Position numbers and translations under genes: made by a program. From the IMG/VR virus record IMGVR_UViG_3300027418_000009, positions 2,217 through 66,216 of that record: a DNA stretch of 64,000 bases; one strand, 5' to 3'. The DNA comes from a virus. Lineage: Duplodnaviria > Caudoviricetes. Below are positions 5,162 to 64,000 of this stretch, in pieces (the first letter of the stretch is position 1; every line of letters begins with the position of its first letter). The notes below the pieces were generated by a model. It worked only from the letters and a program-made list of their open reading frames with translations. It ran no database searches and was not told the DNA's origin.

Positions 5162-7885
5162 TTGGAGATTAGAAGATTATTACGCATACTGTTAGTGCTA
5201 TCTCTAGCCTTATTCCCACTCATTGTAGGCATTGACAAGGCTCATGCAGCAGAAGGCTTGACTGCCCAGGTTTACAATGTCCTGGGACAGAACAATGCCC
5301 CTTATATACCCCAGGGAGCCTCTCCAGTAGTAACTACAAATGTACCTAACATTGACTTTCAATGGGGTGGTGGTAGCGTCCTTGGAGGCCCATCAGAGGA
5401 TGTTATAGTAAGGTTTACGGGGTCAATTAGAAGCGATTCTACTCAAGACATATCATTTTTAGCAACAGCAGACGATGGTACAAGGCTATATATTGATGGA
5501 GTCTTAGTGGCAGATGACTGGAGAGACAAGGGTGGGGGAGGAACTACAACTGCCCCAATAGCCTTTACAGCAGGAGTACCTAAAACCATAGAATTAATGT
5601 ACTATGAAAATGGTGGTGGAGCAAACGTATTTTTAAACTGGGATCAATCTGGATCAATGCAGATCATCCCATCATCAGCCTTTACTTCACAAGCAGCACC
5701 AGTAGTTAAAACAATAGGGCCACCAAGGAACCTCACTGTCGTTGATGGTGCAACTACAACGGTTTTAGATTGGGATGCTCCAGATACTGGTAACACTCAA
5801 CCAGAAAGATATGCAATAAGTTTTAATTGTTCTGGGTGTAACGGATGGGGAATTGCAACTGGAAATGTTGGCGGACCTAATTCACTTAATACAACAATAA
5901 CAATTGATCACTCATTGCTTGAGTCACTAAGACCAAGCGGGACCGTATGGTCATTTCATATTAGATCAGACAATGATACATTAGCGCTATACTCTCAAAA
6001 CTCAAATGTTGTTACATTAAAAATTGGAAAGACTGCTGAAGAGATTGCAGCAGAGCAAGCAGCAGCACAGGCTGCCATTGATGCAGAGAACGCAAGACTC
6101 GCTGCAATTGCTGCAGAAGAAGCAAGGTTAGCAGAAATAGCAAGACTAGCAGAAGTGGCAAGGCTTGCAGAGATTGCTAGACTAGCAGAGGTTGCTAGGT
6201 TAGCAGAGGTTGCTAGGCTTGAAGCAGAAGCAGCAGCGTTGTTAGCAGCACAGCAAGAAGAGGCAAGAATTGCAGCAGCAACTGCTGAGGTTGCAAGATT
6301 AGCAGAGGTTGCAAGATTGGCTGAGGTTGCAAGACTCGCAGAGGTATCACGACTTGCTGAAATCGCAAGACTCGCAGAGGTAGCAAGATTGGCAGAGGTT
6401 GCAAGATTGGCAGAGGTAGCACGACTTGCTGAAATCGCAAGACTGGCTGAAGCAGAAAGACTTGAAGCAGAAAGAATTGCAGCAGCAACTGCTGAGGTCG
6501 CTAGACTTGCTGAAGTAGCACGACTTGCAGAAGTTGCTAGGTTAGCAGAAGTAGCAAGACTTACAGAGATTGCTAGGTTGGCGGAAGTTGCTAGGATTGC
6601 AGAAGTAGCACGACTTGCAGAAGTTGCTAGGTTAGCAGAAGTTGCAAGACAAGCAGAAGCAGAAAGAATTGAAGCAGCAAGAATCGCAGCGCAGGTTGAG
6701 GCTGCTCGTGTAGCAGCAGAAGTAGAGGCTGCTCGTATAGCCTCTGAGGTTGAGGCAGCAAGAATTAAAGCAGAAGCAGAAGCAAAAGCAGAGGCTGAAA
6801 GAATTAAAGCAGAAGAAGCAGCAAGAGAAGCAGCAAGAATTAAAGCAGAAGCAGAAGCAAAGGCAGAGGCTGAGAGAATTGCAGCAGAGATTGAAGCAGC
6901 AAGAATTAAAGCAGAGATAGAGGCCAAGCAAGAAGCAGATCGTATTGCAGCAGAGGCTGCAGCAAAGAAAGCAGAAGAAGAAAGAATTGCTGCAGAAATA
7001 GCCAAGGCTAAAGCAGAGGCAGAAGCAAAGGCTGCAGAGGAGGCAAGGTTGAAGGCAGAGGCTGAGGCAAAAGCCAAGGCAGAAGAAGATGCACGACTTG
7101 CAGCAATAAAGAAAGCAGAAGAAGAAGCCAGAGCCAAAGCAGAAGCAGACAGGCAGGCACAAATTGCTAAAGATAAAGCAGCAGAAGAAGCAAGAATATT
7201 AGCAGAGCAAAAGGCTAAAGAAGCGGAGGCTGCAAGAATAAAAGCAGAGGAAGATAGAAAGATTGCTGAGCAAAAGGCTTTGACTGACGGAAAGATTACA
7301 GCAGAAGATACTAAAAAGGTTTTAGATAACATTAACTCTGATGGTAAAGTAACTCAGGCAGAAGTTAAGAGTATTGTAGAAGCAATTAAACAATCAGATG
7401 CTCCATTAACTGTTGAGCAAAAAGATTTAATTGCAACAGTAGTCATTGCAGCAGCAGTTTCATCTGGAGAAAATGTTACGGCAACACAAATTCAAGATGC
7501 TGGTATTGAATATAAAGATCTTCCAAAAGAAACTCCTGTTGAAGTTAGAACATCTGAAAGCGGAGAACCACTTGTAATTACAGCAGAAGTTGCTGCAAAT
7601 GTAGAATTGGTTACAGATGCTGGAGCATTGTTAGAAGCAGCATTTACTGATCCAGGAGCAGCACTTGCTGCCATTGGAAGTATTGGTGCAGATATGACTG
7701 AAGGAGAAAGAGAAGAGGCAACAGATATGGTTGTTGCAACAGTTGTCGCAGCAGGAGCAGCAATGAACGCTGTCGGTGCTGCAGCAGGATCCACTGGAGG
7801 ATCATCATCAGGAAGTAGTTCTGGTGGAGGATCAGGTGGAGGAGGAGCCTCTGGCAATTCCAAGGGAGTAAGGAGAAGACCATGA
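5162..7885 (+). CDS. large exported protein: PA14 domain, FN3-like domain, long EVARLA/EAAR helical stalk
   Basis: Signal peptide; IDFQWG...RFTG...ADDG...YYENGGGA (PA14); PPRNLTV...LDWDAP (FN3); long E/A/R/K-rich repeat tract. Confidence 0.8.
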   Translation: MEIRRLLRILLVLSLALFPLIVGIDKAHAAEGLTAQVYNVLGQNNAPYIPQGASPVVTTNVPNIDFQWGGGSVLGGPSEDVIVRFTGSIRSDSTQDISFLATADDGTRLYIDGVLVADDWRDKGGGGTTTAPIAFTAGVPKTIELMYYENGGGANVFLNWDQSGSMQIIPSSAFTSQAAPVVKTIGPPRNLTVVDGATTTVLDWDAPDTGNTQPERYAISFNCSGCNGWGIATGNVGGPNSLNTTITIDHSLLESLRPSGTVWSFHIRSDNDTLALYSQNSNVVTLKIGKTAEEIAAEQAAAQAAIDAENARLAAIAAEEARLAEIARLAEVARLAEIARLAEVARLAEVARLEAEAAALLAAQQEEARIAAATAEVARLAEVARLAEVARLAEVSRLAEIARLAEVARLAEVARLAEVARLAEIARLAEAERLEAERIAAATAEVARLAEVARLAEVARLAEVARLTEIARLAEVARIAEVARLAEVARLAEVARQAEAERIEAARIAAQVEAARVAAEVEAARIASEVEAARIKAEAEAKAEAERIKAEEAAREAARIKAEAEAKAEAERIAAEIEAARIKAEIEAKQEADRIAAEAAAKKAEEERIAAEIAKAKAEAEAKAAEEARLKAEAEAKAKAEEDARLAAIKKAEEEARAKAEADRQAQIAKDKAAEEARILAEQKAKEAEAARIKAEEDRKIAEQKALTDGKITAEDTKKVLDNINSDGKVTQAEVKSIVEAIKQSDAPLTVEQKDLIATVVIAAAVSSGENVTATQIQDAGIEYKDLPKETPVEVRTSESGEPLVITAEVAANVELVTDAGALLEAAFTDPGAALAAIGSIGADMTEGEREEATDMVVATVVAAGAAMNAVGAAAGSTGGSSSGSSSGGGSGGGGASGNSKGVRRRP

Positions 7886-13021: not shown

Positions 13022-13344
13022 TGAATAACAATAAATTTTATATTCTGGTTGCCGACTGGTGTCCATATTGCAGAGCAGCAAAGAGTGCTATCTTTGATCT
13101 GGTAGAAAAGTATTACTCAAATAATAACATTGTTTTAATTGAAGATAGTGCAAATGAGTATAGAGAGATTTCTTCACAACTAGAAGCAGATATGATTCCA
13201 GCATTTGTAATAGCAGATGAAAATGGGAAAAAGATTAAGGCTTATGACGGCTCAGATAGATCATTTGAGGCACTTCTTGGTTTCTATGCTGAGAATACAG
13301 GAACAAAGGTTCTTGAAGAAGACCAACCAATTTATAGCAACTAG
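13021..13344 (+). CDS. thioredoxin-like protein
   Basis: ADWCPYC active site; IPAF cis-Pro motif. Confidence 0.8.
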   Translation: MNNNKFYILVADWCPYCRAAKSAIFDLVEKYYSNNNIVLIEDSANEYREISSQLEADMIPAFVIADENGKKIKAYDGSDRSFEALLGFYAENTGTKVLEEDQPIYSN

Positions 13345-13352
13345 GAGTAGTT

Positions 13353-13613
13353 ATGTCAACAGTATTATATTTTACAGCCCAATGGTGCGGTCCTTGCAAG
13401 GCAATGAAGCCAATTGTTGAAGAGTTTGAAAAAGAATATTTAGAGCCATCAGTCATAAGGATTGATGCTGATGATGAATTCAAATTGGCTCAAGAGCATA
13501 AAATTCAGGCTGTTCCTACTTTTATTCTTTTGTCTGAAGAAGGCGAAGAGTTGAATCGTTGGAAGGGTCCAATGAATAAGGAAAAGTTTAAAAAATTTGC
13601 TTTAGGAGAATAA
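13353..13613 (+). CDS. trxA: thioredoxin
   Basis: FTAQWCGPCK; VPTF. Confidence 0.9.
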   Translation: MSTVLYFTAQWCGPCKAMKPIVEEFEKEYLEPSVIRIDADDEFKLAQEHKIQAVPTFILLSEEGEELNRWKGPMNKEKFKKFALGE

Positions 13614-22150: not shown

Positions 22151-23197
22151 ATGAAATTTAAATTCATTGCTTTACCAATAGCATTAGCCATATTTGCTAA
22201 TGCTTTTTTTATTACTCCTTCACATGCTGATAACCTTCAAGGTGCTGGATCCACATTTGCTGCTAACTTTATAGACAGATGCAGGGTCGAATTTATGAAA
22301 TCAACAGGAGATTCTGTTGTATATGGAGCATCTGGCTCAGGTGCTGGAAAGAATATGTTTACAAATGGAATAACAGACTTTGCTATGTCAGATGTTCCTT
22401 ATTCAGGATCAGAACAAAAACCATCAAAAGAGTTCACCTATGTACCATTAGTTGCAGGGCCAATTGGAATTATATACAAACTTGATGAATATAAGATTAC
22501 TATTAAGATGAGCAGAGATACACTTGCTAAAGTTTTTGCGGGACAAATAACAATGTGGAACGATCCACAAATACTAAAAGAAAACATGATAGGAGCAAGA
22601 CTACCTAAGATACCAGCAACAAAGATTAGAGTTGTATACCGTGTTGATGGTTCTGGAACTTCAGAAGTTTTTACTTCATATTTAAATGCAGTTGCTCCAG
22701 CAATCTGGACAAAGCCAGGCAACAAAAACTTTGGTACTGCATTCCCTGGAGACATATCTAGGCAGTATATGAACAGTGCTTCTGGATCACATGGAATTGC
22801 AATGGTACAAGGAACAACAAATGGATCTATTGGATATAACGAGATATCATATGCAAGAGGATTAAAAACAGTCTCTGTTGAGAATGAGGCTGGAAGGTTT
22901 ATGCAGCCAACAGTAGGCGCAGCCTCAGTATTCCTTGGAGACTTTGTTCCAGATAAAAGCGGGGTAGTTAAGATTAACTATAAGAACCCTAATAAACTAT
23001 CTTATAACATATCTACTTTTACATATGGAATAGCATATAAAGAGAAAAACTCAAAGAATGATTCAGTTAAAAAGTTCTTTAACTTCATGCTTGATACCTG
23101 TGGCAAGAAGGCTGAGGACTTGGGATACTCCCCAATCAGGAGCGCTATGCTTAAGTTCTCAAAGGCAAGAGTAGCAGAAATAAGTTCAAAACCGTAG
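22151..23197 (+). CDS. pstS: phosphate ABC transporter substrate-binding protein
   Basis: GAGSTF, GSGAG, DFAMSD, RVDGSGTS, GSIGY. Confidence 0.92.
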   Translation: MKFKFIALPIALAIFANAFFITPSHADNLQGAGSTFAANFIDRCRVEFMKSTGDSVVYGASGSGAGKNMFTNGITDFAMSDVPYSGSEQKPSKEFTYVPLVAGPIGIIYKLDEYKITIKMSRDTLAKVFAGQITMWNDPQILKENMIGARLPKIPATKIRVVYRVDGSGTSEVFTSYLNAVAPAIWTKPGNKNFGTAFPGDISRQYMNSASGSHGIAMVQGTTNGSIGYNEISYARGLKTVSVENEAGRFMQPTVGAASVFLGDFVPDKSGVVKINYKNPNKLSYNISTFTYGIAYKEKNSKNDSVKKFFNFMLDTCGKKAEDLGYSPIRSAMLKFSKARVAEISSKP

Positions 23198-56719: not shown

Positions 56720-57169
56720 ATGGCTAAGATATCAGTTTCAAGCGTTAAGGGGTTATTCCAAACAGGTGATAGACCCACTCAAGAAAATTATGTAGATTTA
56801 ATTGATACCCTTTCATCCCAAGCAACAGAGTTGGGATCAGCAGGTAACAACAACGAAAATACAATTGCGGATATTCAAAACGTAACTGTAATTGATAATT
56901 TTGATGCCACACAATGGCGAATGGTCAAGTATATTATTTCAATATCCAAGACTACAGCAGGGGACAATAAGTTCTATGCAACCGAAATAAGTATTCTTGT
57001 TGACGGTACAGATGTATCTGTTAATGAGTATGGAACAATCGACAATGATGGGAATATTGGCACCATTAATGTCTCTCGCACTGGAAATACCGTGGCTTTA
57101 TCAGTCACTCCAGATCCTGCGATCAAGCCAGTCACCGTACGATATGCTCGTATGGGACTTAAGGCATAA
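56720..57169 (+). CDS. tail-associated protein
   Basis: FQTGDRPT..Y.DLID; C-terminal domain resembles that of the 57187 ORF. Confidence 0.6.
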   Translation: MAKISVSSVKGLFQTGDRPTQENYVDLIDTLSSQATELGSAGNNNENTIADIQNVTVIDNFDATQWRMVKYIISISKTTAGDNKFYATEISILVDGTDVSVNEYGTIDNDGNIGTINVSRTGNTVALSVTPDPAIKPVTVRYARMGLKA

Positions 57170-57186: not shown

Positions 57187-59280
57187 ATGGCAACAGTAAA
57201 TAAAGATTTTAAAATTAAGAGTGGTCTCATTGTTGAAGGTACAACAGCGACAGTCAACAACTTTGACGTTCTTACAAAGAAAACAGCAGATCAAAATTAT
57301 ATTATTGATCTTATTGGTGGTACAGCAACATCTGCTAACACAGCAAACACAGTTGTAAAGCGTGATGCTACTGGAGATTTTGCTGCTGGTGATATTACAG
57401 CAGACTTGATTGGTAACGTAACTGGTACAGTATCAGATATTTCAAACCACGATACCGATGATCTTGGTGAGGGCACAATTAACCAATATTTCACAAACCA
57501 AAGAGCACTTGATGCAACTAACGCTGCATATGATGCAGCAGGTACAGGAGCAGCAGAAGCAGATGTAGTAGCAGGAGATCTTTCAGATCACGAAGCAGCA
57601 ACAGCAGCACACGGTGCAACAGGTGCGGTAGTTGGAACAACGAACACACAGACATTAACAAATAAGACTATTGGAGATACACTTAACTTCACTGGGGCAG
57701 GAGCAATGACAATCAACTCTGATTCTCATATCGTTCTTACTCCAGCAGCAGGCTCTTCTGTTAAGTGGGGTGCAGATGTTCTTGCAACTCGTGGTTACGC
57801 AGATCAAGCAGAAGCAGATGCAATTTCAACAGCATCAGCAGATGCTACAACTAAGGCTGACGCAGCAGAAGCAGACGCTATCTCAGCAGCAGCAACAGAT
57901 GCAACTAACAAAGTAGCAGCAGAAGCAGCACTTAGAGTTTCTGGAGATTCAGCATCAGTTGCTACAGCATCAGCAGACGCTACTTCAAAGGCAAATGCTG
58001 CACAAGCAGCAGCAGAAGCAACAGCAGCAGCAGATGCTACTGCAAAAGCAGATGCAGCACAAGCAGCAGCAAATGCTTACACAGATGCCGAAGTTGCAGC
58101 ACTTGTTGACTCAGCACCAGCACTTCTTGATACACTTAATGAATTAGCAGCAGCAATTTCAGATAATCCAAATTATGCAACAGACCTTGCTACAGCAGTT
58201 GGTGAAAAGGTAGCAAAGGCTGGCGACACAATGACTGGAGCCTTGACATTGTCAGGTGCCCCTACATCATCATTACATGCAGCAACTAAGGGTTATGTAG
58301 ATACAGCAGAATCAAACGCTGCATCAGACGCTACTTCAAAGGCAAATGCTGCACAAGCAGCAGCAGAGGCTACAGCATCAGCAGACGCAACTACAAAGGC
58401 TAACAATGCTAAGTCAGGTGCAGAAGCAACTGCTTCATCAGATGCAACTTCAAAGGTTGCTGCAGAAGCAGCACTTAGAGTATCAGGTGATTCAGCCTCA
58501 GTAGCAACTGCTTCAGCAGATGCAACAAGCAAGGCAAACGCTGCACAAGCAGCAGCAGAAGCAACTGCTTCAGCAGATGCAACAAGCAAGGCTAACGCAG
58601 CAAAGTCTGCAGCAGAGGCCACAGCATCAGCAGACGCTACTTCAAAGGCAAATGCTGCACAAGCAGCAGCAATTGCACACGCAGATGCACTTGATACAGA
58701 TGATGTTGCAGAAGGAACAGCACAGTACTTTACAGATGCTCGTGCCAAGGCTTCAGCAGCAGATCTTTTGACTGGCGCTACAAAGACTAACATTACCATA
58801 ACAGGTTCAGGTTCAGGCCTTGTTATTACCGCAGAAAACGGTGTAGCAGATTCTGATACTGATGATCTTGATGAGGGTACAACAAACCTTTACTTCACAG
58901 ATGTCCGTGCAGTAGATGCTCTTGAAGCAGTTGTTCCAAACTTCACAGCAGTTGAGTTAAACTCAGTTGCTAAGCAAGTTGCAGCAACACTTTCAGCACC
59001 AACAGCAGGAGTTCAGACAGCCCACGCTTTTGCAAAGGCTGACTACCGTTCAGCAGAATACCTTGTAAAGGTTGCCTACGGAACACATACTGAAATCTCA
59101 AAGGTCCTCTTGACACTTGATACTTCAGACAACATTGCAATTACTGAATACGGAATTGTCGGAACAAATGGCTCAGCGTCATCAGTTTCAGCAGGTATTT
59201 CAGGATCAAACGTACAACTTCAGGTTACAACCGTTAACAATAACTCAACAGTTACTGTTGTCGGAACACTTGTTGCGTAA
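57187..59280 (+). CDS. long tail fibre-like protein with Ala-rich coiled coil
   Basis: DATSKANAAQAAAEA repeats; AP..LDTLNELAAA; DTDDL.EG..N.YFT repeats. Confidence 0.75.
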   Translation: MATVNKDFKIKSGLIVEGTTATVNNFDVLTKKTADQNYIIDLIGGTATSANTANTVVKRDATGDFAAGDITADLIGNVTGTVSDISNHDTDDLGEGTINQYFTNQRALDATNAAYDAAGTGAAEADVVAGDLSDHEAATAAHGATGAVVGTTNTQTLTNKTIGDTLNFTGAGAMTINSDSHIVLTPAAGSSVKWGADVLATRGYADQAEADAISTASADATTKADAAEADAISAAATDATNKVAAEAALRVSGDSASVATASADATSKANAAQAAAEATAAADATAKADAAQAAANAYTDAEVAALVDSAPALLDTLNELAAAISDNPNYATDLATAVGEKVAKAGDTMTGALTLSGAPTSSLHAATKGYVDTAESNAASDATSKANAAQAAAEATASADATTKANNAKSGAEATASSDATSKVAAEAALRVSGDSASVATASADATSKANAAQAAAEATASADATSKANAAKSAAEATASADATSKANAAQAAAIAHADALDTDDVAEGTAQYFTDARAKASAADLLTGATKTNITITGSGSGLVITAENGVADSDTDDLDEGTTNLYFTDVRAVDALEAVVPNFTAVELNSVAKQVAATLSAPTAGVQTAHAFAKADYRSAEYLVKVAYGTHTEISKVLLTLDTSDNIAITEYGIVGTNGSASSVSAGISGSNVQLQVTTVNNNSTVTVVGTLVA

Positions 59281-59819: not shown

Positions 59820-61982
59820 ATGGCAACTAGAATGCAACAGCGCAGAGGAACTGCGACACAATGGACAACAGCAAACCCAACTTTAGCCCCAGGCGAAATT
59901 GGATTCGAAACAGATACCAACCAGTTTAAAATTGGTGACGGTGTTAATCAGTGGGAAGACCTATCTTACTTCAAGAACCTTGAAGATCTAGGTGGCTCAC
60001 TAGATGATTATGTCCCTCTTACTACAAAAGGCCAAGCAAATGGCGTTGCCTCTCTTAATGCTCAAGGAGTCATTCCTTCTGAGCAAATTCCTTCTCTAGT
60101 CGGCCTTGATACAGAAATTACAACTGCTGTAAATAATGCAGTTACCGCACTTGTTGATGGCGCTCCTTTAGCCCTTAATACACTTAACGAGTTGGCAGCA
60201 GCAGTAAATGATGACGCATCATACGCTGCATCAATGACTCTTATTACTGACCAACTAGCAGAAAATTTAAGTGATCACGAAGTAGATACTACAACACACG
60301 GCGCAACAGGAGCAGTTGTTGGAACAACTAACACTCAGACATTAACTAATAAGACAATGTCTGGTGCAAGCAATACTTTTAGCGCAATCCCACAATCAGC
60401 AGTTACTGATTTGGTTTCAGATATCTCAACAATTGAGACTGACATTACTACTATTGAAGGAAACATTTCTGGCCTAAATACTGCTGTAGGACTTCGTGCC
60501 ACATCAGCAGACCCAACATTCACAGGAACAGTTATTCTTCCAGCAACAACATCAATTGGTACACTTACTTCAACAGAACTAGGATATCTTGATGGAATTA
60601 CTTCATCAGTTCAAACACAACTAGATGCTAAAGCAGAGTCTTCTTCAATTACTGAAGCAGCACAAGAAGCAGTAAACGCTGCCCTAGTTGCGGGTACAGG
60701 ATTAGACAAGACCTATGATGATGAAGCAAATACAATTACTATTGACATAGATTCAACAGTAGCAACTAAGACTTATGCAGATAATGCAGTAACAACTCAC
60801 AAAGATGCTACAACAAATATTCACGGCATTGTAGACACTGCAGCACTCGCAACTAAGACTTATTCGGACTCAGCAGTAAGCACACACTCTATTGATACAA
60901 CAGATGTACATGGTATTGCAGATACTTCAGCACTAGCATTGACAGCGACAGTTAACACAGCGCTTGATCTAAAAGCACCCCTAGCATCCCCTACTTTTAC
61001 AGGTACGGTATCTGGTGTTACTAAGACACATGTAGGCCTAGGAAATGTTGATAACACAACAGATGCACTAAAGCCAGTTTCAACTGCTACACAGACAGCA
61101 CTTGATGCAAAACTTGATTCCTTAACTGCTTCAACAACATATGCACCATTATCTTCTCCAACATTTACAGGGACTGTAACACTTCCTGCTAATACAATTT
61201 CACAATCAATGATGAGTGACGATTCGGTTGGAACAAACGAAATTGTTGCACTTGCAGTAACAGAAGGAAAAATTGCAGACGGAGCAATAACAAACGCAAA
61301 AGTTTCAGCCACTGCAGCAATTGCAACATCTAAAATTTCAGGACTTGACACAGCCCTTGGACTACTAGCACCAATCGCTTCTCCTACTTTTACTGGCACA
61401 GTTGCTGGTATTACTAAAGGAATGGTTGGGCTTGGTCTTGTAGATAATACTGCAGATACAAGTAAGCCAGTTTCAACAGCCCAGGCTTCAGCAATTGCTA
61501 CTGCTAAATCAGAAGCAATCGCAGATGCTACATCACAAGTAAATGCTCTTCTCACAGGAGCACCAGCAGCACTCAACACTCTTGATGAGTTAGCAGCAGC
61601 CCTTGGTGATGACGCAAACTTTGCTTCAACAGTTACAACATCACTTGCTGCAAAGACTCCAGAACTTTATACATTTACACCTGATGCAACAACAACAAGA
61701 GTTCTTGCTCTTGGCGATAAGTTCGCATCAATTAAATTTACAGGAGCAACAGCAACAAGTATTACTGTACCAACCAACGCATCAGTAGCGTTCCCAGTCG
61801 GAACGTACATTGAATTTTATCAATTTGGTGCAGGACAACTAACAGTAACTGCAGTAACTCCAGGAACAACATCAATTAGATCAACAGATTCTCAGAATAA
61901 GTCAAGAACTCAGTACTCATCTATGGTTTTAGTCAAGGTAGATACTGATGAATGGCTACTTACTGGAGATCTAACAGCATAA
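59820..61982 (+). CDS. tail fibre protein
   Basis: QQRRGTA..W...NP.L..GEIGFETDT..FKIGDG N-terminus; APLASPTFTG and VGLGNVDNT repeats. Confidence 0.8.
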   Translation: MATRMQQRRGTATQWTTANPTLAPGEIGFETDTNQFKIGDGVNQWEDLSYFKNLEDLGGSLDDYVPLTTKGQANGVASLNAQGVIPSEQIPSLVGLDTEITTAVNNAVTALVDGAPLALNTLNELAAAVNDDASYAASMTLITDQLAENLSDHEVDTTTHGATGAVVGTTNTQTLTNKTMSGASNTFSAIPQSAVTDLVSDISTIETDITTIEGNISGLNTAVGLRATSADPTFTGTVILPATTSIGTLTSTELGYLDGITSSVQTQLDAKAESSSITEAAQEAVNAALVAGTGLDKTYDDEANTITIDIDSTVATKTYADNAVTTHKDATTNIHGIVDTAALATKTYSDSAVSTHSIDTTDVHGIADTSALALTATVNTALDLKAPLASPTFTGTVSGVTKTHVGLGNVDNTTDALKPVSTATQTALDAKLDSLTASTTYAPLSSPTFTGTVTLPANTISQSMMSDDSVGTNEIVALAVTEGKIADGAITNAKVSATAAIATSKISGLDTALGLLAPIASPTFTGTVAGITKGMVGLGLVDNTADTSKPVSTAQASAIATAKSEAIADATSQVNALLTGAPAALNTLDELAAALGDDANFASTVTTSLAAKTPELYTFTPDATTTRVLALGDKFASIKFTGATATSITVPTNASVAFPVGTYIEFYQFGAGQLTVTAVTPGTTSIRSTDSQNKSRTQYSSMVLVKVDTDEWLLTGDLTA

Positions 61983-62016: not shown

Positions 62017-63744
62017 ATGCCAAGAAAAACAGGAGGAAGATCCGCAAAGGTATCTTCAAGATTAAAGGCCTTAAAGAATGTTATAGAAACATTTGTTCGT
62101 TCTGACTCTGCCAGTCTTGGCAAGACAGCAACAGGGGCTTCTTGGTCCAATGTTCGTGGATCTTGGGGTATTTCATCAAACATGGCATCGTCTTCTGATT
62201 CAGGATCATCATACCCACTAGCAACCCTCAACTTTTCTGAACAAGATGTAACCATAACAGCCAAGGGCGTAGGCCCAGGAGTTGGAACAGCCTTTTGGGT
62301 AACAGACTCAAATAACTGGTGGGGAACATATGTTGATACAGAGCAAGTTTGTCAAACATGTTCATCTGGCGGAAACTGTTCTACTTATGGAACTGTTTTA
62401 AATCAAGCATCTACTTGTTCAACTTACGGAACTGTTTTAAATCAAGCATCTACTTGTTCTACTTATGGAACTCAAGTTAATGCTAACTCTACCTGTGCTA
62501 CTTACGGAAATGTAATGAATGTGGCACCATCTTGTTCAACTTACGGAACTGTAATGAACGTTGCATCAAACTGTGCTACATACGGAACAAACTACGGAGT
62601 AGGAAACTGTGCTTCTTATGGTACAAACTATTCTGGTGGTAACTGTGCAGCATATGGAGTTGTTTCATACTCTGGTGGTAACTGTGCAGCATATGGTGTA
62701 ACCTCTTATAGCGGTGGAGGATGTACCTCTTATGGAGTTTCTGGTTACAGTGGAGGAGGATGTACCTCTTATGGAGTTTCTGGTTACGGTGGAGGAGGAT
62801 GTTCTGCTTATGGAACTGTCATGAACTCAGCAGGTGGCTGTTCAACATATGGTCAAGGCGCAGTTACTTATGGATTAGTAGCAACAGGTACACCTTACGG
62901 TGGCAGTGGTGGAAATGCTTCCCCATGTTCAAACTGTGGATCATGTCCAACAGGAACATCTTGTCGAAACCTTGGTAGACCAACTACATGTAACGCATAT
63001 TCAGCAGCAGCATATGGAATTACTTGTAACGCAACTGCTGCAACAAACGTATCTTACGGATGTACAGGATATGCTCCAACAAACGTAAACTATGGCTGTG
63101 CATCATTTGCTGCAACAAGCGCAGTATATGGATGTACTTCAACAAATGCAGTAAATCCAAACTATGGATGTACTTCAGCCAATGCAACTGTGGCCTCTAC
63201 ATTCTGTGCAAGCACAAACTACACATCAGCAACTTTCTGTGCAACAGCAAATTCCGCAGTGTATGGAACTCAGTGTAATGCTAACAACGCAGCAGTATAT
63301 GGCACACAGTGTAATGTTTACAACGCAACAGTCTATGGAACAGTATGTAATGCTAACAACGCAGCAGTATATGGCACACAGTGTAATGCTACCAATACAG
63401 CAGTATATGGAACTCAATGTAATGCCACCAACGCTCTTGTATACTCAGCCTGTAACTGTGTAAATAATGACAAGGTTAAGATTATTAAAAATGTTGCGGG
63501 AACCATTTCAACAGTGGCAACCCTAGCATTTGCTGGAACAATCGCAGCAATTAAAACAGTACTATCTGGAAACTCAGTAACTGTATCAGCATATTCTAAT
63601 ACAGGTGCTACCACTCAAATTGGATCAAGCCAAGCAACTACGATCTCTGGTCAAACAAAGAGCAAAGTTCATGGTATACTTAAGGGAGCAGTTACTTATG
63701 GCGCTGCTGCCACAAGTACTATTGATCAATTTGAGGTGAGTTAA
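62017..63744 (+). CDS. putative receptor-binding protein with inserted Cys-ladder repeat
   Basis: Beta-rich flanks; 34 Cys within CxxYG / YGxxC repeats. Confidence 0.75.
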   Translation: MPRKTGGRSAKVSSRLKALKNVIETFVRSDSASLGKTATGASWSNVRGSWGISSNMASSSDSGSSYPLATLNFSEQDVTITAKGVGPGVGTAFWVTDSNNWWGTYVDTEQVCQTCSSGGNCSTYGTVLNQASTCSTYGTVLNQASTCSTYGTQVNANSTCATYGNVMNVAPSCSTYGTVMNVASNCATYGTNYGVGNCASYGTNYSGGNCAAYGVVSYSGGNCAAYGVTSYSGGGCTSYGVSGYSGGGCTSYGVSGYGGGGCSAYGTVMNSAGGCSTYGQGAVTYGLVATGTPYGGSGGNASPCSNCGSCPTGTSCRNLGRPTTCNAYSAAAYGITCNATAATNVSYGCTGYAPTNVNYGCASFAATSAVYGCTSTNAVNPNYGCTSANATVASTFCASTNYTSATFCATANSAVYGTQCNANNAAVYGTQCNVYNATVYGTVCNANNAAVYGTQCNATNTAVYGTQCNATNALVYSACNCVNNDKVKIIKNVAGTISTVATLAFAGTIAAIKTVLSGNSVTVSAYSNTGATTQIGSSQATTISGQTKSKVHGILKGAVTYGAAATSTIDQFEVS

Positions 63745-64000
63745 TTGGACGAGTATAAAAAATTATCTAAGCAGTTTAAAAAGCAAAAGAGATCTGATGC
63801 TTTGGGTCGCCTTGCTCATAAAACTAGAAGAATAAACCCCTACCCAAGATTAAAGTATAAGTATCTTACTAAGAAAAACATTGCCCCAGATGTTTCTACT
63901 ATCACTGAAAATATTGCATTTGTAATTGATGGTCAAGTTGTAGAAATTATTCATTGTCAGCCAAAAATGGCTGCAATCCTTCTTAGTTCTCCAGAGATAG
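63745..64000 (+). CDS. partial hypothetical protein (VIDG family), runs off the window
   Basis: Open frame from TTG: ...NIAFVIDGQVVE...AAILLSSPEI. Confidence 0.55.
   Translation, partial: MDEYKKLSKQFKKQKRSDALGRLAHKTRRINPYPRLKYKYLTKKNIAPDVSTITENIAFVIDGQVVEIIHCQPKMAAILLSSPEI

Follow-up and report, generated by a model that had tools for sequence, protein, structure and literature searches.

A long cysteine-rich insert is encoded near the end of a 64,000-nucleotide (nt) stretch of phage DNA (Caudoviricetes; positions 2,217 to 66,216 of IMG/VR record IMGVR_UViG_3300027418_000009), referred to here as the window. The open reading frame (ORF) that carries it, which we call the ladder gene, runs from 62017 to 63744 on the plus strand and translates into 575 amino acids (aa) plus stop; its protein is designated P0001, and all coordinates are positions in the whole stretch. 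P0001 contains 34 cysteines, every one of them encoded within nt 62350 to 63459, from residue 112 (codon start at nt 62350) to residue 481 (codon end at nt 63459), in the layout 2 + 13 + 4 + 13 + 2. An earlier note on this DNA, made from the letters alone, had described a cysteine ladder in the same interval, running from a CxxC through 13, 4 and 13 cysteines to a CxC, and retranslation reproduced both the coordinates and the layout exactly. As set out below, we regard it as probable, though well short of certain, that P0001, whose gene comes directly behind a tail-fibre gene, is a protein of the lectin fold that bears a disulfide-laddered, two-armed stalk with a knob.

The two runs of 13 cysteines define an N arm and a C arm (Table 1). 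Between C121 and C275 in the N arm the gaps from one cysteine to the next are 13, 13, 13, 13, 13, 12, 12, 13, 13, 13, 13 and 13 residues, and each of the 13 cysteines is followed by xxYG. A 29-residue gap then separates the N-arm cysteines from the centre, where C304-x2-C307-x2-C310-x5-C316 lie in the sequence CSNCGSCPTGTSC. The C-arm cysteines, from C325 to C468, are spaced by gaps of 12 residues and one gap of 11, and here the conserved residues come before the cysteine, in YGxxC, YGC or TFC context. The 370-residue insert as a whole lacks Asp, Glu, Lys and His altogether and has just two Arg, compared with 30 such residues among the 205 of the flanks. At the DNA level, the N arm consists of tandem 39-nt repeats and the C arm of tandem 36-nt repeats.

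Table 1. The ladder gene, the parts of its protein and the two adjacent genes. Positions are those of the window. ConA, concanavalin A; pLDDT, predicted local distance difference test
Feature	Position (nt)	Strand	Basis or remark
Ladder gene, whole ORF; predicted lectin-fold protein bearing the cysteine ladder	62017-63744	+	Homologues share the start MSKK..SRLKAL
N-terminal half of predicted ConA-like jelly roll, aa 1-111	62017-62349	+	AlphaFold2 pLDDT 96-98 at aa 21-110; aa 1-20 of low confidence
Putative base clamp, N side, C112-x2-C115	62350-62361	+	CxxC...CxC or CxC...CxxC kept in most subfamilies
N arm, 13 Cys, C121 to C275; 12 C-x-x-Y-G units, each 13 or 12 residues long, blocks 5-2-4-1	62377-62841	+	Unit comparison; 39-nt repeats
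Tip or knob, aa 276-324, GTPYGGSGGNASP-CSNCGSCPTGTSC-RNLGRP	62842-62988	+	Four-Cys centre at aa 304-316 (nt 62926-62964)
C arm, 13 Cys, C325 to C468; 12 units of 12 or 11 residues, Y-G-x-x-C, blocks 1-4-2-5	62989-63420	+	Unit comparison; 36-nt repeats
Putative base clamp, C side, C479-x-C481	63451-63459	+	Cys layout
C-terminal half of predicted ConA-like jelly roll, aa 482-575	63460-63741	+	AlphaFold2 pLDDT 93-98; fold matches reach residue 575
Upstream tail-fibre gene, 720 aa	59820-61982	+	Mtd_N head (E 2.7e-14); many tail-fibre PHROGs
Downstream small ORF, running off the record end	63745-63999	+	Homologues of about 106-115 aa

Mirror order and matching of the two arms

The arms of P0001 are arranged as mirror images of each other. 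Its vector of cysteine gaps is palindromic at 13 of 16 positions, compared with a mean of 8.6 in shuffled vectors, and none of 2000 shuffles reached 13. The arms were further compared by scoring the units within each arm for pairwise similarity and correlating the resulting matrices of the two arms (Mantel test, 20000 permutations). With the units mapped in mirror order, the correlation was 0.61 for protein (matched by 2 of the 20000 permutations) and 0.71 for DNA (matched by none), and both values were maximal at shift 0. Mapped in direct order, the units gave 0.37 for protein and 0.40 for DNA, and sliding the mirror mapping by one to three units gave values from 0.13 to 0.56. The tip-adjacent unit of the N arm, u12, and its mirror partner, v1, both resemble the five base units of their own arm, so a decay of similarity along the arm cannot explain the mirror order. 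The proposal that the repeat subtypes match in reverse order, 5-2-4-1 in one arm facing 1-4-2-5 in the other, thus passed the permutation tests. A search of the ladder-gene DNA of P0001 for an inverted repeat as the source of this order found none.

P0001 belongs to a large family. A word-indexed search retrieved 77 homologues of 318 to 604 aa, HMMER run over representatives at 50% identity returned 339 clusters at E ≤ 0.001, and a scan of IMG/VR with an alignment as query gave 129 relatives, of which 80 were retained; the IMG/VR scan with P0001 as the single query gave no related loci. Family members share both halves of the body, and the insert between the halves ranges from 44 to 476 residues and contains from 4 to 46 cysteines. 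The shortest full-length member seen, P0129, is 227 aa long with a 44-residue insert, and a search for shorter, insert-free relatives found no full-length member under 226 aa. Judging by a tblastn comparison of P0001 and the short member P0128 with 50,697 phage records (low-complexity filter on), which gave no match, the family has no cultured member to date among the records searched, and a literature search that did not extend to supplements and subscription journals found no description of it. Two loci have unusual gene arrangements. Locus L072 carries two copies of the ladder gene about 5 kilobases (kb) apart (551-1597 and 5932-7044, plus strand) with the same pattern of cysteine gaps, and at locus L080 the coding sequence of the family protein is divided at the tip between two ORFs that lie in different frames (5959-6483 and 6501-6983, plus strand), one encoding the N half with the N arm (174 aa, 10 Cys) and the other the C arm with the C half (160 aa, 10 Cys). 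The latter arrangement, seen at one locus only, may be genuine or may stem from a frameshift error.

The matching of the arms extends across the family. The cysteine count is even in 155 of the 158 proteins with full-length flanks, the odd ones being P0005, P0016 and P0059. The spacing of the cysteines was examined in a rung-gap test, in which each N-arm gap was set against the C-arm gap at the same step k from the base (193 distinct gap vectors, 1831 rung pairs). The two gaps correlated at r = 0.69, compared with −0.01 to 0.17 when one arm was shifted by one or two steps, 0.155 in direct order and at most 0.198 in within-protein shuffles. Taken protein by protein, 55 of 151 showed a closer register of the arms than their shuffles (p ≤ 0.01), where about 1.5 would be expected by chance, in a test in which uniformly spaced proteins are unable to reach significance. 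Mirrored gap vectors were present in inserts of 44 to 476 residues. An example among the heterogeneous ladders is the 691-aa protein of L003, in which the N-arm gaps (17, 17, 17, 14, 18, 18, 9, 12, 9, 12, 21, 13, 11, 10, 13, 13, 9) are mirrored almost gap for gap by those of the C arm (16, 16, 16, 14, 19, 19, 10, 11, 10, 11, 21, 13, 11, 9, 14, 13, 9).

Several relatives that differ in stalk length do so by equal steps in both arms. P0002 exceeds P0003 by four rungs in each arm. A 10-residue rung is present three times in each arm of P0018, five times in each arm of P0004, P0013 and P0014, six times in P0012, seven in P0011, nine in P0008 and ten in L002, with two in one arm and three in the other in P0016; each arm of P0004 has one copy of a ‘7,4’ module, each arm of P0011 two and each arm of P0008 three. 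The type of rung is matched as well as the number. In P0036, P0039, P0043, P0045, P0027 and P0028, the arms agree at every height on whether the rung is single or double, a double rung having CC opposite C-x5-C, and the pattern of single and double rungs varies among these proteins. Rungs were scored here by height; an index-based clustering was dropped, because it shifts the series (‘7,4’ reads differently from each end) and its shift-by-one control was similar. We consider this paired gain and loss of cysteines at equal heights to be the strongest sequence evidence that cysteines partner across the arms.

The midpoint of the insert is marked by a tip motif common to several subfamilies, in which G-x-G-N-[SA]-[AS]-P precedes a cluster of three or four cysteines. 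In the first set of sequences the motif lies at 0.47 to 0.51 of the insert in all 18 carriers, whose inserts span 176 to 400 residues, and in P0001 the form GN[SA][AS]P lies at 0.51. Over 19 distinct sequences, the number of residues before the motif and the number after it are correlated at r = 0.986 across a range of 80 to 204 residues, and the number of cysteines after minus the number before equals the value for balanced arms in 18, the exception being P0024. Together with the even counts, this agrees with the expectation of the earlier note that the cysteines per arm should stay equal while length varies. The knob of P0001, GTPYGGSGGNASPCSNCGSCPTGTSCRNLGRP, is of the same type as the knobs of P0042, P0015 and P0017, whose stalks use other rung types, and the knob can therefore be described as a conserved module on a variable stalk, in line with the small knob that had been postulated at the stalk end. 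One subfamily, to which P0128 belongs, has no knob and carries the turn Y-D-x-F-R-G instead. This type of turn persists in P0102, P0124 and P0197, which, like P0171 and P0182, are free of cysteine and have an insert of Tyr-, Pro- and Ser-rich repeats such as PPSYYAG. Going by these members, the two-armed insert would appear to have no strict need of cysteine.

These data also bear on the possibility that each arm folds locally, as a repeat solenoid of its own. The beetle antifreeze protein is a disulfide-braced beta-helix of this kind, one continuous array of 12-residue coils with two cysteines per coil and intra-coil disulfides. The arms of P0001 recall it in that their units are 12 to 13 residues long, rich in Thr, Ser, Asn, Gly, Ala and Cys and encoded by tandem DNA repeats, and P0067 has a weak match to Beta_helix (E 0.052, under the Pfam cut-off). 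A solenoid does not, however, predict mirrored gap lengths (r of 0.69 against at most 0.17), a mirrored order of subtypes extending to u12 and v1, which are not adjacent to the units they resemble, agreement of the arms in double and single rungs, or a tip motif at the exact midpoint. P0001 has one cysteine per 12- to 13-residue unit rather than two, its units form two arrays of unlike type in mirror order, and each half contains 17 cysteines, an odd number. Local folding of the arms is thus extremely unlikely in our view, and we return to a two-armed stalk in which the cysteines of one arm face those of the other.

A predicted ConA-like body and the orientation of the stalk

Structure prediction gave a confident model of the body of the protein. 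AlphaFold2 was run with 72 family sequences for P0001 and 64 for P0128. Residues 20-130 and 460-575 of P0001 came together in one joint domain, with pLDDT above 95, which structure comparison identified as a ConA-like jelly roll, a two-sheet beta-sandwich of about 200 residues. The top ConA-like matches had Z scores of 16.2, 15.7, 15.0 and 14.5, and dozens of chains of lectins, GH16 proteins and carbohydrate-binding modules (CBMs) matched at Z ≥ 10. The matches include CBM66 (4b1m; VIA-align Z 16.2, root-mean-square deviation 2.5 Å, 147 residues aligned), the C-terminal receptor-binding domain of TM4 gp23 from a mycobacteriophage (9n6a; Z 15.0) and a Douge baseplate chain (8zdo; Z 14.5), with which the P0001 body shares its fold over 147 to 172 aligned residues. 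Three tryptophans, W43, W94 and W101, are invariant in the family alignment. On the strength of the model, the body of P0001 is a ConA-like beta-sandwich of the lectin fold, and as a possible carbohydrate binder it can be likened to the binding heads of actinophage tail proteins. Judged by their titles, none of the ConA-like structures matched bears a 370-residue cysteine-rich hairpin.

Four strands of the model, E101-116 and E121-128 on one side and E464-471 and E476-493 on the other, exit the domain as a ribbon that bears C112, C115 and C121 and C468, C479 and C481, respectively, with pLDDT of 82 to 85 at the first rung. Since the strands that leave the sandwich continue into it, the cysteine-rich stretch can be seen as an insertion that prolongs two neighbouring sandwich strands. 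The projection of a loop from a beta-sandwich domain, another proposal of the earlier note, is borne out to this extent, with both flanks joined by AlphaFold2 in one ConA-like jelly roll. The model of P0128 is similar at the base, with a ribbon at E102-124/E205-229, and contains in addition a tip hairpin at E157-162/E167-172, predicted with pLDDT of about 65.

P0001 has no sequence-family membership: it matched no family in Pfam or PHROGs, and the family profile matched no PDB sequence at E ≤ 1. In the ESM Atlas, 37% of the members of a neighbour cluster are assigned to PF22237 (SO2946-like_C; score 0.88), which we treat as a lead only, and the good matches in BFVD were six uncharacterised proteins of uncultured Caudovirales and none other. 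For the stalk by itself, Pfam gave below-threshold noise only, the ESM Atlas restricted to named clusters gave no usable match, and the PDB searched by sequence gave griffithsin only, at E 0.8, through a GGSGGN stretch. This stretch lies ahead of the knob at aa 287-298 (nt 62875-62910; TGTPYGGSGGNA) and resembles the GGSGGN loops of griffithsin at chance level; the likeness was accordingly treated as chance.

The arms might pair not within one chain but within a trimer, as a six-stranded rod in which some or all rungs link different chains. The T4 gp37 needle, at the distal fibre end, is a trimer of this kind, in which the chains run out and back, carry matched His-x-His iron sites and serve in receptor recognition, and phage fibres are trimeric as a rule. 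The out-and-back path with matched motifs is shared by the gp37 needle and the P0001 stalk, and matched arms fit a trimer as well as they fit a monomer. In addition, the ladder gene lies directly after the fibre gene in the tail-fibre module, and a lone two-stranded ribbon of about 180 residues per arm would be unusually thin. Several features speak for a monomer, however. The body is predicted as a compact single-chain domain with the ribbon leaving it, only about 20 residues precede this domain, with no trimerising N-terminal region, and the 370-residue insert, which has no His, contains no His-x-His. We consider a trimeric rod unlikely.

A second alternative concerns the orientation of the protein: the knob could plug into the virion or fibre, which would leave the lectin body as a distal, sugar-binding head on a variable-length tether. 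Conservation is higher in the knob than in the stalk and the knob is found on stalks of different build, both of which would suit an attachment module, and the body shares its fold with carbohydrate-binding modules and with the receptor-binding heads of actinophages. Against this, the subfamily without a knob, which has the YDxFRG turn only, is still a member of the family, and the N-terminal 25 or so residues of the protein are conserved (SRLKAL..F.R) and could be a docking element. An inverted arrangement seems improbable to us, and we proceed from a stalk that extends away from the body with the knob at its far end.

The proposed ladder, its weak points and known systems

In the arrangement that we favour, P0001 would be a virion protein belonging to the tail-fibre module. 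Two neighbouring strands of its sandwich would be extended into a single, very long projection that goes out and comes back, with the N arm (C112-C275) running outward and the C arm (C325-C481) returning. The arms likely lie side by side, antiparallel and in register, and cysteines at equal height would pair as C121-C468, C134-C456 and so on up to C275-C325, giving 13 rungs. With a base clamp of C112/C115 and C479/C481 and a four-cysteine knob at the tip, the total would come to 17 pairs. The rungs would most likely be disulfides, formed after the particle is released into oxygenated sea water. The outward C-x-x-Y-G would face the returning Y-G-x-x-C with each tyrosine opposite a glycine, and a bulge may absorb the one residue by which N-arm units exceed C-arm units (13 against 12). 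The stalk would keep the knob, which is conserved, at a distance from the lectin body, presumably for recognition of the host surface; that it is a spacer of evolvable length which presents the knob for this purpose is a weaker suggestion than the pairing itself. Repeats would be gained and lost separately in each arm, and selection for fully paired cysteines would purge the unbalanced forms.

A number of observations weigh against this arrangement. The stalk of P0001 was predicted with pLDDT below 50 at residues 133-458, as were residues 129-151 and 176-201 of P0128; an AlphaFold prediction, which the earlier note had named as a check, therefore gave a confident body with a first-rung ribbon and did not extend the ribbon through the stalk. 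At the DNA level, the closest units of P0001 (u1 and u2, which differ at 2 of 39 nt, u10 and u11, at 1 of 39, and v9 and v11, at 0 of 36) sit within one arm, and none are mirror partners. The arms have therefore been remodelled independently, and joint duplication of mirror-partner units is not supported. The idea that the two arms expanded in register thus holds for the rung changes, which run in parallel in both arms across the family, but not for co-duplication of the DNA, and the match of the arms is best explained by selection rather than by a mechanism of joint duplication.

Some members depart from balance or from regularity. P0016 has 2 units against 3, P0059 has 4 against 5 and P0024 has 11 ladder cysteines against 9, while P0005 is without the whole distal part, apparently through recombination between similar units of both arms; some of these four may be assembly errors. 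Unequal arms in homologues had been named in advance as grounds for rejecting the hairpin; they occur in these members and not in most of the family. Other members have equal cysteines in arms that are otherwise unequal (90 against 57 residues in P0144, a period of 4 against 5 in P0093), and the general rule is equal cysteines per rung rather than a regular ribbon. Moreover, odd rung periods (5, 7 and 11) are common in relatives and do not fit a regular two-stranded ribbon with all disulfides at non-hydrogen-bonded sites, so the rails are probably not regular beta structure throughout. As to function, a receptor probe is suggested by gene context, and we count this among the softer parts of the argument.

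The last group of objections concerns the chemistry of the rungs. P0001 would be made in a reducing cytoplasm, and no phage-encoded thiol oxidase was found in the record, which is estimated to be 44% complete, but two adjacent thioredoxin-fold ORFs only (about 13048-13263 and about 13359-13598, plus strand; PF00085, both above the curated cut-off). These ORFs could function in nucleotide metabolism or in thiol-disulfide chemistry and are not specific for disulfide formation. A search for Erv1/ALR gave no match in any genome, controls included, and is uninformative. The cysteines could alternatively be metal ligands (for Zn or Fe-S), or be reduced, with the arms joined by other contacts. Synthesis in the cytoplasm would agree with this, and the cysteine-free members show that the insert is possible without cysteine; in addition, the centre (C-x2-C-x2-C-x5-C) and the base (CxxC with CxC) each cluster four cysteines, reminiscent of zinc-ribbon or ferredoxin-like sites. 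However, with one cysteine per arm every 12 to 13 residues and no His, Asp or Glu in the stalk, tetrahedral sites could not form along its length. The cysteine count, taken modulo 4 over the 160 members with at least four cysteines, is 2 in 82, 0 in 75 and odd in 3. In the 82, neither metal sites made up wholly of four cysteines nor pairing confined to equal arms is possible, and the even counts of 155 of 158 members are those to be expected of bonding in pairs. We regard metal-bound or reduced cysteines as very unlikely, and disulfide rungs across the two arms remain the explanation that we prefer.

Several known systems resemble parts of this arrangement. Tip adhesins of the gp38 type, from T-even phages and S16, are encoded after the fibre gene and contain a hypervariable Gly-, Ser- and Tyr-rich region that forms a polyglycine-II sandwich. 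The ladder gene shares the order of fibre gene and then small adhesin gene, as well as a hypervariable region rich in Gly, Ser and Tyr, whereas the polyglycine-II sandwich differs from a ConA-like body with a ladder. The glycine-rich lattice of S16 gp38 is mentioned in a paper on the cyanophage Pam3, which also describes fibres disulfide-linked to the baseplate (PMC9942802), and about 1,700 disulfides are reported for the mycobacteriophage Jabs (PMC13419713). Disulfide-rich phage virions have precedent in Pam3 and Jabs.

Cystine ladders, in the sense of antiparallel arms with matched cysteine positions, are the closest parallel for the stalk, and in the P0001 family the mirrored gaps, the tip motif at the midpoint and the even counts correspond to that description. 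Theta-defensins and the C0D0 loop of Chlamydomonas HAP2, which has a cystine-ladder-like motif of three disulfides (PMC6327110), share with P0001 antiparallel arms and parallel disulfides (putative in P0001), and the HAP2 motif, like the P0001 stalk, is a loop insertion in a larger beta-rich protein. They differ in scale and build: three disulfides in 18 to 37 residues in those ladders, against 17 putative pairs in 370 residues in P0001 and up to 23 in L002, and the P0001 family has rails of 5 to 18 residues, modular rung types and variable length. The ultralong complementarity-determining region 3 of the bovine antibody heavy chain (CDR H3) offers a parallel for the overall shape, with a stalk that rises from a beta-sandwich loop and ends in a disulfide-bonded knob (PMC8602281, PMC10523490). 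The bovine structure has, like P0001 as we read it, a long two-stranded stalk with a small knob, and its stalk length matters functionally. There, however, the stalk is short and without a disulfide ladder, its cysteines being in the knob only, whereas the P0001 stalk would be laddered; the bovine region is also of unrelated origin and diversified somatically, while the P0001 family varies between lineages.

Compared with ladder hairpins described so far, the P0001-family stalk appears unprecedented in its number of rungs and its modular build. It may represent a new architecture, a covalent ladder of interchangeable rung modules (rails of the lengths given above; rungs single, double or Tyr-only; 2 to 23 rungs) whose rails, separated by as many as several hundred residues of sequence, stay matched in evolution without a link at the DNA level and which acts as a probe of adjustable reach for phages of planktonic bacteria, although we put this forward tentatively and would not be surprised to see it fail. 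With extended rails, the stalk of P0001 would measure tens of nanometres in length and about 1 nm in thickness, and no longer disulfide-laddered hairpin would be known. Should the pairing prove real, it would surpass every known cystine ladder by a wide margin and provide a natural rod whose length is set by a modular number of rungs, of interest in protein design as a model for stiff, uncharged, covalently stapled spacers. It would also constitute a natural experiment in long-range coevolution, in which repeats come and go in parallel in distant segments while metagenomes capture the occasional unbalanced form. Pairing would further point to a host-recognition module, widespread but so far without a name, in uncultured phages of marine and fresh waters that probably infect actinobacteria, and would add to recent evidence for extensive disulfide bonding in phage virions.

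Genomic neighbourhood and source of the window

The assignment of the ladder protein to the tail region, made in the earlier note, is confirmed by its surroundings. The three ORFs upstream of the ladder gene are fibre-like, and among 79 related loci a homologue of the nearest of them, the 720-aa fibre gene, is the ORF immediately upstream in 48. The part of the fibre gene that is conserved beside the ladder gene is the one encoding its last 100 or so aa (about nt 61620-61979), and the homologues match mostly through aa 600-720 or thereabouts, whatever the length of the fibre (139 to 1989 aa); in an alignment of 33 such C-terminal domains the mean column identity was 44%. On the other side, a homologue of the downstream small ORF, which has no Pfam or PHROG match, is the next ORF in 20 of the 79 loci and lies at +2 to +6 in 14 more, the usual order after the ladder gene being an ORF of about 110 aa and then a phrog_7084/DUF6065 protein. 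This recurring neighbourhood makes the ladder protein a fixed member of a tail-fibre cassette. A complex prediction for three copies of the conserved fibre C-terminal domain with the short-stalk family member of the same locus, L070, scored 0.01, compared with a mark of 0.32, and is evidence neither for nor against an interaction. Stalk length and fibre length were uncorrelated over 33 loci (Spearman −0.04; ORF calling may have truncated some of the fibres).

The source IMG/VR record is 66 kb long. Its terminase is 52% identical to those of Streptomyces phages of about 130 kb. Up to 98% of the words sampled from the stretch are present in marine metagenome runs, and in three of four marine runs all contig pieces are at least 99% alike to it. 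In all four, the ladder gene is covered by short contig pieces broken at the repeats. A contig from run X5 jumps over 72 nt, equal to two C-arm units, at window positions 63273-63346, with 43 nt fitting both sides; either it represents natural variation with unbalanced arms, or the identical units v9 and v11 were collapsed during assembly.

Two other features of the window may be mentioned. A fibre-like ORF of 697 aa (57187-59280, plus strand) contains long Ala-rich repeats (ASADATSKANAAQAAAEATA), and its N terminus resembles 149-aa ORFs at 56720 and 59316 (MATVNKDFKIKSGLIVEG and MTTVAKDFKVKNGLIV). Farther upstream lies a gene for a PstS-like phosphate-binding protein (22151-23197, plus strand; phrog_5385, E 1e-39), a typical auxiliary gene of marine phages.

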